62,733 nucleotides of DNA. It comes from Candidatus Doudnabacteria bacterium (GTDB lineage: Bacteria > Patescibacteriota > Doudnabacteria > UBA920). The stretch lies in contig PLYC01000021.1 in assembly GCA_003151625.1 (NCBI GenBank), forward strand, positions 182,930 to 245,662, read 5' to 3'. The translations under genes and the position numbers were made by a program. The notes beneath the pieces were generated by a model. The model did not search any database and was not told the DNA's origin. It was given only the letters and a program-made list of their open reading frames with translations. This document shows, piece after piece, positions 3,202 through 24,789 of the stretch. The stretch's first letter is position 1, and every line of letters begins with the position of its first letter.

Positions 3202-4269
3202 ATGTATAAACTTATCCGTCCATTAATTTTTAAGGCTTCATCGGATCCCGAAACAACGCACAGGGCAATCATGAAGCTTTTACATATGGTTGGTAGTGTC
3301 CCTCCCCTTTCCTGGACAGAGCGGATGATTTTTAATTTTGCTGACGAACGGCTTGGTCAAAAAGTTTTTGGTTTGGATTTTAAAAATCCGGTTGGTTTGG
3401 CCGGAGGGTTCGACAAGCAAGCCGAAGCTGGTCCTGCTTTTGCCAATTTGGGTTTTGGATTTTTGGAAGTCGGGACAATTACCCGGCATGCCCAGCTGGG
3501 CAATCCTCGCCCGCGAATTTTTCGTTTGGAACAGGACGAAGCATTAATAAACAGAATGGGATTTAATAATGAAGGCGCGGATTTTATGGTCGGCAGCTTA
3601 TCTGTGGCACAAAAATTAAATATTCCTTTGGGCATTAATTTGGGTAAATCTAAAATAACAGAGCTGGCAAAAGCTCAAGAAGATTATTTATATTCTTTTT
3701 CTAAGCTGTATGAATACGGCGATTATTTTGTCGTAAACGTCAGTTCCCCTAACACACCTGGATTACGTCAATTACACAATAAAAGTTTTTTGGTGGATAT
3801 TTTGTCGGGTTTAAATAACCACAAATCAAAACAACAAATAAAAAAACCGATTTTGGTTAAAACAGTTGTTGACCTTTCTTTGGAAGAGATTGATGAAGTT
3901 TTGGAAGTTTGTAAAAACCAAAACGTTGACGGTTTAATTATCAGCAATACTCTATTGAGCCGCGACGGGTTAAAAATAAAAACAGTTGAGGCCGGTGGTA
4001 TGAGCGGCAAGCCCATTAGGCAAAAATCTACCGATTACATAAGGCATATCCATCACCGGCTCCCAACCTTGCCCATTGTCGGCGTAGGTGGAATTTTTAG
4101 TGCCGAGGATGCTTATGAAAAAATTAAAGCCGGCGCTAGCCTGGTTCAGGTTTACACGGGCTTGATTTATGAAGGCCCCGGCATAGTAAAAAATATTAAT
4201 CGTGGTTTGGTTAAACTTTTGCAGCAAGACGGATTTAAAAATATAAGTGAGGCTGTGGGTAAGCAATAA
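3202..4269 (+). CDS. pyrD: Dihydroorotate dehydrogenase (quinone), class 2
   Basis: NPVGLAGGFDK, EVGTIT...Q.GNPRPRIFRL, INRMGFNNEG, NVSSPNTPGLR, GGMSG, SLVQVYTGLIYEGP. Confidence 0.93.
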   Translation: MYKLIRPLIFKASSDPETTHRAIMKLLHMVGSVPPLSWTERMIFNFADERLGQKVFGLDFKNPVGLAGGFDKQAEAGPAFANLGFGFLEVGTITRHAQLGNPRPRIFRLEQDEALINRMGFNNEGADFMVGSLSVAQKLNIPLGINLGKSKITELAKAQEDYLYSFSKLYEYGDYFVVNVSSPNTPGLRQLHNKSFLVDILSGLNNHKSKQQIKKPILVKTVVDLSLEEIDEVLEVCKNQNVDGLIISNTLLSRDGLKIKTVEAGGMSGKPIRQKSTDYIRHIHHRLPTLPIVGVGGIFSAEDAYEKIKAGASLVQVYTGLIYEGPGIVKNINRGLVKLLQQDGFKNISEAVGKQ

Positions 4270-4311
4270 AACAATGGGCACCGTTGTGCTGCACAACGGT
4301 GCCCATTGTTT
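4269..4311. repeat. Palindromic element family A (CAATGGGCACC...GGTGCCCATTG)
   Basis: Perfect 21-bp arms AAACAATGGGCACCGTTGTGC-T-GCACAACGGTGCCCATTGTTT directly after the pyrD stop. Confidence 0.85.
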
Positions 4312-4319
4312 AGTAACAC

Positions 4320-4348
4320 TTGAAAATAAAGGCGGTTTTAGCTATAAT
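4320..4348 (+). promoter_or_regulatory. Sigma70-type promoter of tRNA-Leu
   Basis: TTGAAA-17 nt-TATAAT. Confidence 0.65.
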
Positions 4349-4371: not shown

Positions 4372-4458
4372 GCCCAGGTGGCGGAATTGGTATACGCACT
4401 ACCTTGAGGTGGTAGCGGGAGCAATCCCGTGCAGGTTCGAGTCCTGTCCTGGGCACCA
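4372..4458 (+). tRNA. tRNA-Leu(GAG)
   Basis: GCCCAGG acceptor, anticodon arm CTACC-TTGAGGT-GGTAG, long variable arm, TTCGAGT loop, encoded CCA. Confidence 0.95.
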
Positions 4459-4566
4459 CGAACCACTCCCCCGCGGAGCGGGGTCGGGTACGTGGCGCAG
4501 CCACTAGCGCGACAGAGCGGTGAGTGCCCTGTACCGGAGCCAGGCGACTGGTATAGGGCAGTAAAA
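4459..4566 (+). repeat. Post-tRNA element, copy without nuclease
   Basis: CGAACCACT...TGAGTGCCCTGTACCGGAGCCAGGCGACTGGTATAGGGCAGTAAAA, near-identical to the sequence after tRNA-Ala(CGC). Confidence 0.75.
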
Positions 4567-4622
4567 AGACCCAAGAGGTCTTTTTTGTTATACTTTAACC
4601 AGAGTAATTAAACTATTATTTT

Positions 4623-18397: not shown

Positions 18398-20833
18398 ATG
18401 GCGGAAACAAATCAACAATTAGGGTTAAGTTCGGTGGAAGCTGCGAGGAGGATTAAACAGTACGGGCCGAATGCCATTGCGGAAAGCAGGCAGGTTTCGG
18501 GGCTTGTGGAGTTTTTGGTGCGGTTTAAAAACCCGCTGGTTTTAATATTGATTTTTGCGGCCGGGATTTCGGCTTTAACGGGCGACCCTGTTAGCGCGAC
18601 AATCATTATTTTAATAGTACTAATTAGCGTTTTGTTGGATTTTTTTAATACTTATAAGTCTCAGCGTGCGGCCGAAGAATTAAAGGAAAAAGTGCAGATT
18701 TTAGCCAGAGTTACCAGGGACGGTAAAATTCAGGAAATCCCCCTTTGGCAAATAGTGCCGGGCGATGTGGTGCATATGGAGGCTGGCGACCTGGTGCCGG
18801 CCGACGGCAAGGTTTTGGAAGGCAAAGATTTTTTTATAAACGAATCTTCCCTAACCGGTGAATCTTTTCCCGTGGAAAAAGAACCGGGCGCTCCCCTATT
18901 TTTGGGTACCAGCGGCGTGAGCGGAACGGCAGTAATGGAAGTGGAAATTACCGGACACAAAACCAAATATAGCCATATTGCGGAATCCATTGGCGGCGGA
19001 GAGCAACCTACGGAATTTGACCGCAATATTACAGATTTCAGTTATTTAATTATGAAGATTACTTTTGTTTTGGTAATCTTTATCTTTTTAATCAACGCTT
19101 TATTTAAAGCCGCCATACTGGAATCATTTTTATTCTCTGCGGCATTGGCTGTGGGGCTAACACCGGAACTTTTGCCCATGATAATTGCTCTTAATTTGTC
19201 CAAGGGCAGTTTAAATATGTCTAAGCACGGGGTAATAGTAAAAAAACTTTCCGCTATCCAAAATTTCGGTAGTATGGATGTCCTGTGTACGGATAAAACC
19301 GGCACGCTTACCGAAGACAGGATTGTGCTAATGAAGTATGTGGACGCCAAAGGCGAGACTGACGAGAAAATTTTCGACTACGCCTACATTTCCAGCACGT
19401 TCCGTAGCGGCTTCAACAATCCCCTCGATGCCGCCGTAAAAAATTATAAAAAAATTTCTACTTCTCATTTTTCCAAAATAGATGAAGTCCCGTTTGATTT
19501 TGAGCGCAGGCGTGACAGCGTGGTGGTTGAGTCATCGGCCGGGAAAGAAATAGTTTCCAAAGGCGCTCCGGAAGGGCTTTGGGAAATTTGCGACCATTAT
19601 AAAAGCACAAAGACCAAAATTACCCCGCATTTGTTAAAGGAGCTCGAAGAGGAATATAAATCCTTGAGCCAGGACGGGTTTAGGGTTTTGGGAGTGGCAA
19701 GTAAATCCATCGCGGAAAGCAAAAAAACTTATACCAAAGCTGATGAAAGCGGAATGATATTCCTGGGTTTTATAGCTTTTTTGGATCCACCCAAAAAAAC
19801 CGTGTCCGAAACATTAAAACTCCTTGAGAGTTACGGTATTACCATTAAAATTATTACCGGGGACAATGATTTAGTTACCAAAAAAATTGCCGATGAAATT
19901 CAGTTGCCCGTGGCAGGTATATTGCTGGGATCGGAAATTGAAAAAATGCACGACCATGAGTTGGCTTTAAAAGTGGAAAAGACCACAATTTTTTCCAGGG
20001 TAAATCCGGAGCAAAAAAAGCGTATTATTATTGCTCTGCAAAAAAATGGGCACACTGTTGGCTATATGGGCGACGGCATAAACGATGCGCCGAGCCTTAA
20101 AGCCGCGGACGTGGGCATTTCCGTGAACAACGCGGTCAACGTGGCTAAGGACTCCGCCGATCTTATTTTGATGCACAAAAGCCTGCACGATTTGGCCAAC
20201 GGAGTAATTCAGGGGCGCAGTACGTTTTCCAACACCATGAAGTATTTAATGATGGCTCTGTCCAGCAACTTCGGCAATATGTTTTCTATGGCCGGCGCTT
20301 CCCTGTTCTTTAATTTTTTACCCATGCTTCCCACACAAATTTTGCTGAACAATTTGTTGTATGATTCTTCGCAGTTTACCATTCCGTTGGACCAGGTTGA
20401 CATTGAAGACATTAAAAAACCGCGCAAAATGAATTTAAAATTCATTAAAGAATTTATGCTGGTCTTTGGTCCTTTGAGCAGCATATTTGATTTTGCCACT
20501 TTTTATTTGCTGTATTCGGTGTTCAAGTTTTCCGGCAGTCATTTTCAAACCGGATGGTTTATGGAAAGCCTGGCCACGCAGGCGCTGGTAATATTTATTA
20601 TTCGCACCAAAAAAATTCCATTTTTGCAAAGCAACCCCTCCAAGTATTTGGCGTTGTCGGTAGTTCTGGCCGTAGTACTTGGCTGGGTGGTAGCGCTTAG
20701 CGGCTTTGGCGCGGTGTTTAAGTTCACTTCCCTGCCGGTCTTGGCCTGTTTGGGAATAGTGCTGATTACTGCGGTGTACTTGGTGTTAGTCGAGTTTATC
20801 AAGCGGCGGTTTTACAGACGCTTCGCGGATTAA
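18398..20833 (+). CDS. mgtA: Mg2+-transporting P-type ATPase (P3B)
   Basis: TGES, PELLP, DKTGTLT, KGAPE, TGDN, MGDGINDAP, SSNFGNMFS. Confidence 0.9.
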   Translation: MAETNQQLGLSSVEAARRIKQYGPNAIAESRQVSGLVEFLVRFKNPLVLILIFAAGISALTGDPVSATIIILIVLISVLLDFFNTYKSQRAAEELKEKVQILARVTRDGKIQEIPLWQIVPGDVVHMEAGDLVPADGKVLEGKDFFINESSLTGESFPVEKEPGAPLFLGTSGVSGTAVMEVEITGHKTKYSHIAESIGGGEQPTEFDRNITDFSYLIMKITFVLVIFIFLINALFKAAILESFLFSAALAVGLTPELLPMIIALNLSKGSLNMSKHGVIVKKLSAIQNFGSMDVLCTDKTGTLTEDRIVLMKYVDAKGETDEKIFDYAYISSTFRSGFNNPLDAAVKNYKKISTSHFSKIDEVPFDFERRRDSVVVESSAGKEIVSKGAPEGLWEICDHYKSTKTKITPHLLKELEEEYKSLSQDGFRVLGVASKSIAESKKTYTKADESGMIFLGFIAFLDPPKKTVSETLKLLESYGITIKIITGDNDLVTKKIADEIQLPVAGILLGSEIEKMHDHELALKVEKTTIFSRVNPEQKKRIIIALQKNGHTVGYMGDGINDAPSLKAADVGISVNNAVNVAKDSADLILMHKSLHDLANGVIQGRSTFSNTMKYLMMALSSNFGNMFSMAGASLFFNFLPMLPTQILLNNLLYDSSQFTIPLDQVDIEDIKKPRKMNLKFIKEFMLVFGPLSSIFDFATFYLLYSVFKFSGSHFQTGWFMESLATQALVIFIIRTKKIPFLQSNPSKYLALSVVLAVVLGWVVALSGFGAVFKFTSLPVLACLGIVLITAVYLVLVEFIKRRFYRRFAD

Positions 20834-20874
20834 AACAATGGGCACCGTTGTGCAGCACAACGGTGCCCATTGTT
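20834..20874. repeat. Palindromic element family A
   Basis: AACAATGGGCACCGTTGTGC-A-GCACAACGGTGCCCATTGTT immediately after the mgtA stop. Confidence 0.85.
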
Positions 20875-20917
20875 GGCTATGTTATAAATAAAGCCGCCAT
20901 GCTCTAGCATAGCGGTT

Positions 20918-21169
20918 TTATTTTAGTTTCGATTTTTTTATAAGCTCCAGTTTTTTTATCCGGGGTAATTTTTTTACCGCCGCTTCCCTGCTCAGCGCCT
21001 TCCCCCATTTGCGGAACTTTTCACTGTAAACAATTCTCCCGCCGCCGTGGGCAATTACATATTTTGATCCCCTGCCTGAATTATGTTTTGCTTCCCTCTC
21101 CTTTAACTCCTTCGTACTTCCCGAATACAGCGTTCCGTCTTTGCATTTTAGAATGTAGAAATAAGCCAT
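20918..21169 (-). CDS. Stand-alone GIY-YIG nuclease
   Basis: MAYFYILKCKDGTLYSGST....R...HN.G.GSKY...Y.E......A..RE..VKK. Confidence 0.85.
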   Translation of the reverse strand: MAYFYILKCKDGTLYSGSTKELKEREAKHNSGRGSKYVIAHGGGRIVYSEKFRKWGKALSREAAVKKLPRIKKLELIKKSKLK

Positions 21170-21276
21170 ATTTTTACAGCCCTGTACCAGTCGTCTGACT
21201 CCGGTACAGGGCACTCACCACTCACTTCGACCGACAACATGGCTGTGCCATGAACCCGAACGAAGTGAGTGGTTCG
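21170..21276 (-). repeat. Post-tRNA element leading into the GIY-YIG gene
   Basis: CGAACCACT...TGAGTGCCCTGTACCGGAGTCAGACGACTGGTACAGGGCTGTAAAA; matches 4459-4566. Confidence 0.75.
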
Positions 21277-21350
21277 TGGTGGACCTGGGGGGAATCGAAC
21301 CCCCGCCTCGGCAATGCGAATGCCGCGTAATACCACTTTACTACAGGCCC
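21277..21350 (-). tRNA. tRNA-Ala(CGC)
   Basis: G3:U70 identity pair, anticodon arm CGGCA-TTCGCAT-TGCCG, encoded CCA. Confidence 0.93.
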
Positions 21351-21456
21351 TTATTAGATTTAAGATTGAAATCACTGCATAATTTTAGCTGATTATGCTA
21401 TAGTAGTAAAGCGTCGGGTAATCAGCAGGCGCATATACAATAATGACTCATTATAT

Positions 21457-23735: not shown

Positions 23736-23753
23736 ATATAAATCTGTGGTAAA

Positions 23754-23792
23754 ACAATGGGCACCATTGTGCAGCACAATGGTGCCCATTGT
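23754..23792. repeat. Palindromic element family A
   Basis: ACAATGGGCACCATTGTGC-A-GCACAATGGTGCCCATTGT with compensatory changes relative to 4269. Confidence 0.85.
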
Positions 23793-23945: not shown

Positions 23946-24017
23946 TTCGACTCGTCCCGCCCAGGCGGGATTTAATCATGGCCTCCGGCCAAGACAAAAA
24001 TTTGGTATAATAAAATC

Positions 24018-24615: not shown

Positions 24616-24789
24616 AATAAAAAATATCCCAATGTGTGGGATATTTTTTATTTGTCCCGAGCGAATCTCGCGTAGCGGGACGAGTCGAGGGGCAATATTA
24701 AATGAGTCATTTATAAAAAGAAAAAACCCGGAACTCACATTCCGGGCGCCCATAGAAAAAGGGGCAATTTTGAATCACAGGTTTTGTGG

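Follow-up and report, generated by a model that had tools for sequence, protein, structure and literature searches.

Why do two different transfer RNA (tRNA) genes in one stretch of a Candidatus Doudnabacteria genome carry the same folded element directly behind their encoded CCA, and why does one of these copies lead straight into the gene of a small GIY-YIG nuclease? The stretch, 62,733 nucleotides (nt) of contig PLYC01000021.1 and referred to here as the window, holds an element of ~108 nt that begins at the base after the CCA of tRNA-Leu(GAG) (4459-4566, + strand) and of tRNA-Ala(CGC) (21276-21170, − strand). That the two are the same element had been noticed in an initial annotation of the window, and both the tRNA calls and our alignment agree. 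The family they belong to is apparently an undescribed small selfish DNA element of Patescibacteria, the ultra-small bacteria, and in kind a variant of known selfish nuclease-plus-repeat elements. We think it rather probable that the element is selfish DNA whose gene-less copies are served by an activity provided in trans by the form that bears the nuclease. Both copies in the window are most likely of this gene-less, non-autonomous form.

The element lies behind the CCA of many tRNA genes

We searched the genome of the window (G000; 1.5 Mb, 34 contigs, 43% G+C, 43 tRNA genes, every one encoding its CCA) with a covariance model built from six copies, surveyed 41 relatives and 401 genomes across the phylum, and called the tRNAs at the window loci with ARAGORN and Rfam. 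Other G numbers below denote relatives and C numbers contigs. Nuclease neighbors were counted for 62 copies, the fold was derived from an alignment of 39 copies from 19 genomes, and motifs were tabulated for 55 copies.

Both window copies open with CGAACCACT immediately after the CCA and share the 21-mer GGTGAGTGCCCTGTACCGGAG, which occurs twice in the window and in none of 100 shuffles; folding against shuffled sequence gave z scores of −4.3 and −8.8 for the two copies. The hairpin that ends the element, with the variable positions first proposed for it, stands exactly so in the alignment of both copies. Run without its filters, the covariance model recovers no copies in the window besides these two (scores in Table 1). 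Rfam returned tRNAs alone, both for the window at gathering thresholds and for the Leu locus at E values up to 10, leaving the element without an Rfam family, and a full-text search of the literature found no account of such an element.

Across the genome, BLAST with the element alone, its tRNA end left off, located 7 places, and the covariance model recovered at least 14 good copies. Ten lie behind the CCA of annotated tRNAs (10 of 43), namely Leu gag, Ala cgc, Arg tct, Leu caa, Val gac, Leu tag, Ile gat, Tyr gta, Ser gga and Pro tgg, the Ile gat copy sitting in the spacer of a ribosomal RNA operon. One copy is found 3′ of an unannotated tRNA-like end on contig C16, and three are orphans, each still starting after CACCA. 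A short form, in which a simple stem replaces the helix P1 described below, occurs at four further tRNA-like ends, three of which also have a 3′ hairpin (those of Arg tcg, of Thr tgt, where the hairpin is a variant, and of a C32 tRNA that is unannotated).

Among the relatives, 17 of 41 carry the element, with 0-7 copies per genome, as do 18 of the 401 genomes of the phylum sample, where three copies follow transfer-messenger RNA (tmRNA) genes. A tRNA or tmRNA called by ARAGORN abuts 19 of 26 element matches in the relatives and 12 of 23 phylum-wide, and most of the remaining matches have T-arm-like ends. The element is also present in three metagenome-assembled genomes labeled Omnitrophota, for which binning error is possible. 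A 17-mer pattern scan over all GTDB genomes returned mainly a conserved coding stretch of Bacteroidales together with chance sites; the genuine loci were Patescibacteria-type and the three Omnitrophota-labeled ones only. The motif is thus not a processing signal that is confined to two tRNAs and vertically conserved, the outcome against which the initial annotation had set its proposal: the search of tRNA 3′ flanks that it called for, in this and related genomes, finds the motif at many tRNAs, not vertically fixed, and linked to GIY-YIG genes.

Solo 3′ hairpins (GCCCTGYACCGGA..CTGGTWCAGGGY) also stand away from tRNAs in G000, at C5:34422-34451, C5:85037-85068, C13:91321-91350, C16:78283-78317 and C32:51800-51829, the first of them nearly identical to the hairpin of the Ala copy. 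Two of the orphans, of differing subtype (G000:C32:14130-14400 and C32:16846-17080), each lie behind a copy of one ~100-nt repeat that ends in TTGC(T/C)A-N17-TAAAAT-AAGGTGCACCA, a promoter-like arrangement placed for transcription to start at the element. The repeat may mimic a target, or it may be the gene of an unrecognised small RNA with CCA at its end.

Empty sites and turnover point to a discrete mobile unit

The locus running from tRNA-Leu(gag) to the flavin mononucleotide (FMN) reductase gene is kept across the genus, which allows filled and empty sites to be compared directly. G014 and G007 lack the element, their terminator coming immediately after the CCA; in the window's genome the element lies between CCA and terminator. 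Other relatives have other hairpins at this tRNA: the 'TTCGACT..CATGGCC' family in G010, G008 and G003 (in G003 at its own tRNA-Leu(gag)), a 'GCCTTCG..CGRCTGG' hairpin in G015, and a short hairpin in G001.

The limits of the unit are given by the copies behind tRNA-Val(gac) and tRNA-Ile(gat) of the window's genome, which differ by 1 nt and are identical only from the CCA to the end of the 3′ hairpin; what is shared is therefore a discrete unit of ~115 nt without a nuclease gene. Four species share a syntenic tRNA-Leu(tag)/tRNA-Val(gac) pair at which the subtypes or families of element differ, and the two copies of G011 at this pair are closer to each other than to their positional counterparts. 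Such a pattern indicates turnover and homogenisation within genomes. A tree of the 39 copies was resolved too poorly to judge clustering by genome or by tRNA. Neither an integrase nor a duplicate of the tRNA 3′ end accompanies the unit, which measures 108-450 bp and whose single open reading frame (ORF), where it has one, encodes a GIY-YIG protein.

One nuclease lineage is linked to the element

Twenty of the 62 copies precede a small GIY-YIG gene on the same strand within ~20-150 nt, and 19 of these 20 genes belong to one lineage of ~86 amino acids (aa) ('MPIKFHYVYVLRS...', 48-100% identity), which we call cognate. Its signature is 'MPIKFHYVYVLRSLKDGLFYIGYS..KNRRPLELIFYEAF..DALRRE.YFKTTKGK', and it is found behind many different tRNAs and a tmRNA. 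The gene is broken by stop codons or an insert in 4 of 10 cases in the genus-level sample. The window's genome has it intact after tRNA-Tyr (C3) and decayed after tRNA-Arg(tct) and at an orphan on C24, all outside the window. No conserved right end or hairpin was found 3′ of the cognate gene, similarity ending at about the stop codon, with one exception: the tRNA-Arg(tct) locus here (L002) and the tRNA-Ala(cgc) locus of G015 (L013) have ~150 nt in common beyond the stop codon, among them the first codons of a small ORF on the reverse strand (M[SP]DLIREL[RK]QRQKKV..), so that in some cases the mobile unit may reach further to the right.

The cognate gene at the C24 orphan (G000:C24:5154-5470) is split between 'DGLFF' and 'IGYS' by a ~70-nt hairpin-forming insert (..CGACG..GGGAAATAAAAAAGT/ACTTTTTTATTTCC..GAGTCGAGG), which looks like a hairpin repeat inserted within the nuclease gene.

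The Ala copy of the window is the only one of the 62 that stands ahead of a different lineage. As first described, its hairpin leads into a GIY-YIG gene, the end of the hairpin lying 9 nt from the ATG of an 83-aa ORF, and the Leu copy has no such gene: a terminator-like hairpin and then the FMN-reductase gene follow it, and no GIY-YIG remnant was found 3′ of it. The 83-aa protein is ~30-34% identical to the cognate lineage. Its homologues occur in 33 of the 41 relatives, mostly one per genome, including genomes without the element. They often lie near tRNA-Ala(cgc) in either orientation, divergent from it in G002, G018 and G012 and 3′ of it at varying distance in G009, G017 and G015; in G027 the gene is directly behind tRNA-Glu, and in other relatives it stands beside unrelated genes. 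In G011, tRNA-Ala(cgc) is followed by the element, then by the cognate GIY-YIG gene and then by the 83-aa one. The tRNA there is 100% identical to that of the window and the 3′ hairpin nearly so, and what the window lacks is exactly the 292-nt cognate cassette of G011 between hairpin and ATG. The 83-aa gene is probably a resident of the lineage, ahead of which the element came to lie. With this lineage exceptional beside the element and the G011 cassette absent here, both window copies are most likely non-autonomous.

By sequence comparison, both lineages (83-88 aa) are single-domain GIY-YIG proteins of the Slx1/UPF0213 branch. Against Pfam PF01541 (cut-off 22.6 bits), the 83-aa protein scores 55.4 bits and the cognate type 68.1 bits. 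The best PDB matches of the 83-aa protein are 1ywl (E 3.5e-13) and 1zg2 (E 5.9e-12); for the two lineages together these structures match at E 3.5e-13 to 2.6e-9, followed by SLX1 7wme at E 0.0036. The catalytic residues, namely the Tyr of GIY (Y5), the Tyr-x-Gly of YIG (Y15, G17), R25, H29 and E50, are invariant in 14 sequences. A search of NCBIfam found no family-level match for these proteins. A 2006 survey defined the Slx1-like branch and treated its bacterial members as vertically inherited repair factors (PMC1564403). Small GIY-YIG genes number 1-11 per genome in the genomes considered here, many of them with internal stops.

These results bear on two proposals of the initial annotation. 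That of a small mobile unit at tRNA 3′ ends, free of an integrase and existing in nuclease-bearing and gene-less forms, is borne out by the many tRNAs, the empty sites and the GIY-YIG linkage. That of an autonomous and a non-autonomous form survives as a concept and fails in its casting of the Ala copy as the autonomous one, its gene belonging to a lineage that differs from the element-linked one (1 of 62 copies against 19 of 62).

The element is an array of inverted motifs completed by CCA

The consensus fold is 92.8% paired, with 20 pairs changed on both sides; slid alignments are 30-36% paired, and none of 500 shuffles reached the observed values. Helix P1 takes in the terminal CA of the tRNA together with a downstream UG. 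In the CGAACC subtype, to which the window copies belong, P1 contains a tandem G-A mismatch, which is replaced by Watson-Crick pairs in other subtypes. The stem sequences (ACCAYTC/GARTGGT and GCCCTGYACC/GGTWCAGGGC) are conserved beyond what pairing needs, a pattern that resembles protein-recognised repeats. The 3′ hairpin of the family is GCCCTGTACC..GGTACAGGGC.

An inner motif, GGTWCRTGG (motif B), is, with 0-1 mismatch, the reverse complement of CCA and the next six bases in 50 of the 55 copies tabulated; at least eight variants show the two changing in concert. Since the inner motif and P1 both pair with the CCA region, this region has two mutually exclusive partners. The element as a whole is an array of inverted copies of a motif of ~9 nt, the first of which is completed by the CCA of the tRNA (CCA-YGWACC, with the hyphen at the tRNA/element junction), and the 3′ strand of the inner hairpin, GCCA-YG, repeats that junction. 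The first base (+1) is C or U in all 55 tabulated copies. The outermost motifs, CCATGTACC and GGTACAGGG, form an imperfect inverted pair in the TGTACC subtype; in the window's CGAACC subtype the match between them is poor.

Lying with the tRNA between promoter-like and terminator-like sites, which at the window loci are consensus matches only, the element should be co-transcribed with the tRNA and hence be compatible with its 3′ maturation. At the level of the strands, the sense strand folds slightly better than the antisense in 28 of 40 copies, and G-U outnumber A-C mismatches 55 to 34; the bias is weak, and these folding-energy and mismatch tests do not separate selection on RNA from selection on DNA.

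A proposed nick-and-copy mechanism and the points against it

We infer the activity, substrate and cleavage site of the nuclease, and the route of copying, as follows. The family would consist of elements of ~105-150 bp that enter after the encoded CCA of tRNA or tmRNA genes, between gene and terminator, its autonomous form being one that carries the ~86-aa Slx1/UPF0213-like GIY-YIG gene directly behind the 3′ hairpin. The nuclease would recognise hairpins or motifs in single-stranded or extruded DNA and nick at the CCA junction; repair would then copy the element in from another locus, which would both spread it and homogenise its copies, and gene-less copies would be served in trans. The element would be co-transcribed with its tRNA, and its fold probably must also allow the 3′ end of that tRNA to mature. 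Recognition and nicking of hairpins are suggested by the structure-specific nucleases of the Slx1 type and by the precedent of Ssn. Nicking and copying would account for a left junction that is exact, for subtypes being swapped between tRNA end and shared 3′ hairpin, for the homogenisation within genomes and for the absence of target duplications.

A wider claim, which we advance tentatively and hold somewhat less likely to stand than to fall, is that the family represents an unrecognised class of bacterial mobile element. Its sole protein would be the ~86-aa Slx1-like GIY-YIG, and its recognition motif would be completed by the universal CCA, so that any tRNA or tmRNA end could serve as a landing site; gene-less riders would accompany it, and it would have spread over Patescibacteria and other phyla without transposase or integrase. 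The hairpin array would then be at once the DNA substrate of the nuclease and an RNA fold that permits tRNA maturation.

Several points weigh against nicking and copying by a selfish element. A hydrolytic GIY-YIG nuclease is unable to rejoin DNA on its own and would depend on host repair. Target-site duplications are absent both at filled relative to empty sites and around the Val/Ile unit, and the terminal inverted repeat is at best imperfect. Two thirds of the copies are without an adjacent nuclease gene, and 8 relatives have 1-2 copies yet no close cognate gene. Copies at tRNA-Val(gac) and tRNA-Ile(gat) recur across several species and genera, which could mean long retention. Four further features would fit a role at the RNA level: the strong covariation of the fold, the two exclusive and covarying pairings of the CCA region, the better folding of the sense strand, and the promoter-like site of the orphan C32a, which ends 7 nt ahead of its CACCA.

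Alternative explanations

The last four features would fit an RNA-level cis element, a structured 3′ trailer made with the tRNA that steers or times 3′ maturation or acts as a leader of the nuclease mRNA, its spread being a by-product. The CCA might be held first by inner motif B and then passed to the outer helix; as a leader, the element might play a stabilising or regulatory role for the downstream nuclease mRNA. Functional RNAs derived from tRNA 3′ trailers, the 3′ external transcribed spacer (3′ETS) RNAs, are known in E. coli, and the position of the element between tRNA and terminator, its covariation, the complementarity of motif B to CCA and the following six bases, the slight sense-strand bias and the placement of the C32a promoter-like site for a start at the element all agree with such a role. 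We nevertheless consider it unlikely, given that the same tRNA (genes 100% and 98% identical) is processed without the element in close relatives, that subtypes are swapped at syntenic sites, that the conservation of the stem sequences far exceeds the need for pairing, that the G-U to A-C ratio is just 1.6, and that copy number ranges from 0 to 11 or more in one genus.

It is improbable that the Ala copy and the 83-aa gene make up an autonomous element from which the Leu copy derives as a non-autonomous one. The 9-nt spacing to the ATG, the promoter- and terminator-like sites that bracket tRNA, element and gene, the retained catalytic residues and the tendency of the gene to adjoin tRNA genes in relatives would all be expected of such an element. 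A single copy in 62, however, lies beside the 83-aa lineage, whose gene is present in 33 of 41 relatives, mostly in single copy and also where the element is missing; in several of them it diverges from tRNA-Ala(cgc) or neighbors other genes, and in G011 the cognate nuclease separates it from the element.

We give equally little credence to a domesticated system that combines repeats with a nuclease, as REP/RAYT or NTS/Ssn do, in which a resident single-copy GIY-YIG, possibly the 83-aa gene itself, would act in trans on dispersed hairpins for the host, in the control of recombination or of incoming single-stranded DNA. The 83-aa gene is indeed conserved and mostly single-copy, solo 3′ hairpins do exist away from tRNAs, and Ssn is a small single-domain GIY-YIG tied to hairpin repeats (PMC11893778). 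Yet the published SRM pattern is found in 0 of 40 elements and once in the genome, the 83-aa gene occurs without the element, copies number ~20 rather than hundreds, and the element is bound to tRNA ends as REP and NTS repeats are not.

It is very unlikely that the element is a self-cleaving ribozyme freeing the tRNA 3′ end in the style of theta (minimal ribozymes resembling that of hepatitis delta virus, HDV) or hatchet ribozymes, whose cleavage would leave a 2′,3′-cyclic phosphate on the CCA and so counts against it. The element's 5′ end does coincide with the tRNA 3′ end, as in theta ribozymes (PMC10879173), and it is structured with conserved unpaired G-A motifs; but Rfam ribozyme models gave no match at E values as high as 10, the base at +1 is C or U rather than G, the region needed for P3/L3 is missing from several copies, and the tRNAs here encode CCA where 95% of theta-associated tRNAs do not (PMC10879173). 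An HDV-like fold was also rejected from the anatomy of the element.

Organization of the window loci and neighboring hairpin families

The features of the two loci are collected in Table 1. tRNA-Ala, element and 83-aa GIY-YIG gene are predicted to form one transcription unit, from the promoter-like site at 21410-21382 to the terminator-like hairpin at 20915-20894.

Table 1 Features of the two element loci in the window
Feature	Position	Strand	Basis
Promoter-like site TTGAAA-17-TATAAT of the tRNA-Leu transcription unit	4320..4348	+	consensus scan, 11/12 matches
tRNA-Leu(GAG), CCA encoded	4372..4458	+	ARAGORN; Rfam tRNA 54 bits
Final CA of tRNA-Leu, paired within helix P1 of the element	4457-4458	+	consensus structure
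Gene-less element copy (Leu), CGAACC subtype	4459..4566	+	covariance model 94.8 bits, E 2e-18
Leu copy, P1 5′ strand	4457-4468	+	
Leu copy, small hairpin	4469-4483	+	
Leu copy, inner motif B GGTACGTGG	4487-4495	+	
Leu copy, hairpin GTGGC-GCA-GCCAC containing motif B	4492-4504	+	
Leu copy, P1 3′ strand	4515-4526	+	
Leu copy, 3′ hairpin	4527-4558	+	
Intrinsic-terminator-like hairpin and T run, end of tRNA-Leu/element unit	4563..4586	+	
Promoter-like site TTTACT-17-TAAAAT upstream of tRNA-Ala(CGC)	21382..21410	−	9/12 matches, weak
tRNA-Ala(CGC), CCA encoded	21277..21350	−	ARAGORN; Rfam 68 bits; 100% identical to G011 gene
Second element copy (Ala)	21170..21276	−	covariance model 106.2 bits, E 8e-21
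Ala copy, P1 5′ strand	21278-21261	−	
Ala copy, motif B GGTTCATGG	21256-21248	−	
Ala copy, inner hairpin	21252-21238	−	
Ala copy, P1 3′ strand	21229-21212	−	
Ala copy, 3′ hairpin	21211-21180	−	
83-aa single-domain GIY-YIG (Slx1/UPF0213-like) gene	20918..21169	−	Pfam PF01541 E 8e-15
Terminator-like hairpin 3′ of the 83-aa GIY-YIG gene	20894..20915	−	

Other repeats are present as well. The genome has at least 16 copies of a near-perfect palindrome of 43 nt, AAACAATGGGCACCGTTGTGCWGCACAACGGTGCCCATTGTTT, which stands at gene ends and resembles a bidirectional terminator; three of its copies are in the window (4269-4311, 20833-20874 and 23752-23792), and two of these adjoin the element loci. At 23946-23993 (+), from the base after the CCA of tRNA-Arg(cct), stands another hairpin family, TTCGACTCGTCCCGCC..GGCGGGA..CATGGCC-TCC-GGCCAAG, which is also present at the tRNA-Leu(gag) end in G010, G008 and G003 and at the tRNA-Thr(cgt) end of the window's own genome. 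It seems that several related hairpin families generally use the 3′ ends of tRNA genes as a landing zone in this lineage. A repeat of the form GTCCCGAGCGA..hairpin..CGAGTCGAGGGGC lies at 24654-24693, and elsewhere in the genome it comes after the terminator of tRNA-Ser(gct), Glu(ctc), Ala(tgc) and Ser(gga).

Three tRNAs, among them tRNA-Gln(ttg) and tRNA-Asn(gtt), have other small GIY-YIG genes directly upstream (G000 C16:152600-153190, C21:22300-22810 and C27:6283-6513). Each is preceded by a duplicate of the 5′ part of its tRNA, comprising acceptor, D arm and 5′ anticodon stem, whose D loop is interrupted by a GC-rich hairpin. GIY-YIG cassettes that target tRNA genes thus seem to come in a second architecture.

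Significance

If the proposed mechanism is right, the element would be among the smallest self-propagating DNA elements known, at ~0.4 kb and with a single 86-aa protein, and its targeting logic would be simple, the invariant CCA of tRNA genes forming part of the element's own site. Some members of the large, uncharacterised Slx1/UPF0213 GIY-YIG family of bacteria would thereby gain a function, and the hairpin-crowded 3′ flanks of tRNA genes in ultra-small bacteria a reason, and the element could be a source of compact structure- or sequence-specific nucleases akin to those now being developed from Ssn. For annotation, such elements should not be taken for parts of tRNA genes, for terminators or for new small RNAs. 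What is new here is the distinction of two GIY-YIG lineages, by which the supposed autonomous copy of the window is probably gene-less, the motif array completed by CCA, and clean comparisons of empty with filled sites and of loci with and without the cassette.

Comparison with known systems

Two kinds of element share the address at tRNA 3′ ends. Like the theta ribozymes found behind phage tRNAs (PMC10879173), the element is a structured, RNA-like sequence that starts from the exact tRNA 3′ end; unlike them, it is without an HDV-like fold of nested double pseudoknots, a G at +1, the base 5′ of which such ribozymes cleave, or an Rfam match, resides in bacterial chromosomes at CCA-encoding tRNAs, and is linked to a nuclease. 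Like the integrase-borne islands cataloged by Islander (PMC4383910), it has the 3′ ends of tRNA and tmRNA genes as its target. It differs from those islands in lacking an integrase, a duplicated fragment of the tRNA 3′ end and att repeats, in its size of 0.1-0.45 kb, and in its placement after the gene rather than within it.

The free-standing GIY-YIG homing endonuclease genes are represented by the Seg family of phage T4, whose SegB lies within the T4 tRNA gene cluster (PMC2330249). With these the element shares a GIY-YIG gene that has neither intron nor integrase and stands among or beside tRNA genes, as well as a polymorphism of presence and absence: the 292-nt cassette is in G011 and not here at the Ala locus, and the element is present or absent at Leu(gag). 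Such polymorphism among relatives suggests spread by the repair of breaks. The proteins here, unlike Seg, comprise the GIY-YIG domain alone in 83-88 aa, with no DNA-binding domain, and fall in the Slx1/UPF0213 branch and not in the I-TevI/Seg branch; the element, moreover, has a conserved multi-hairpin module, many tRNA targets and many gene-less copies.

Among hairpin families, REP/BIME with RAYT and IS200/IS605 resemble it in having hairpin units with conserved stems, gene-less copies that outnumber the gene and a defined cleavage position beside a short sequence, the last of which the element would share under the proposed mechanism. It departs from them in its hydrolytic GIY-YIG in place of an HUH tyrosine transposase, its target at the tRNA CCA end and its low copy number. 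The Ssn nucleases with their NTS/SRM hairpin repeats (Chenal et al. 2025, PMC11893778), defined as CDD cd10448 (GIY-YIG_unchar_3), likewise pair a tiny single-domain GIY-YIG protein with genetically linked, sequence-specific hairpin repeats, and they are the precedent for recognising and cutting hairpins in single-stranded DNA, the one substrate that they cleave, site-specifically (PMC11893778). The differences are that the closest solved relatives of the proteins here are UPF0213 proteins, that the SRM pattern (HGTCWYN(0-2)YYVSBRHN(0-5)WNVSBRGN(0-2)RNCYNB) is absent from all 40 elements on either strand, with 1 match in the genome, and that Ssn repeats number in the hundreds, scattered without a tie to tRNA ends. 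By these features the element fits neither the homing endonuclease genes nor the REP/RAYT or NTS/Ssn families; by analogy, it appears to act most like a cross of the two, a free-standing homing endonuclease gene joined to a hairpin family of the REP/RAYT or NTS/Ssn type.

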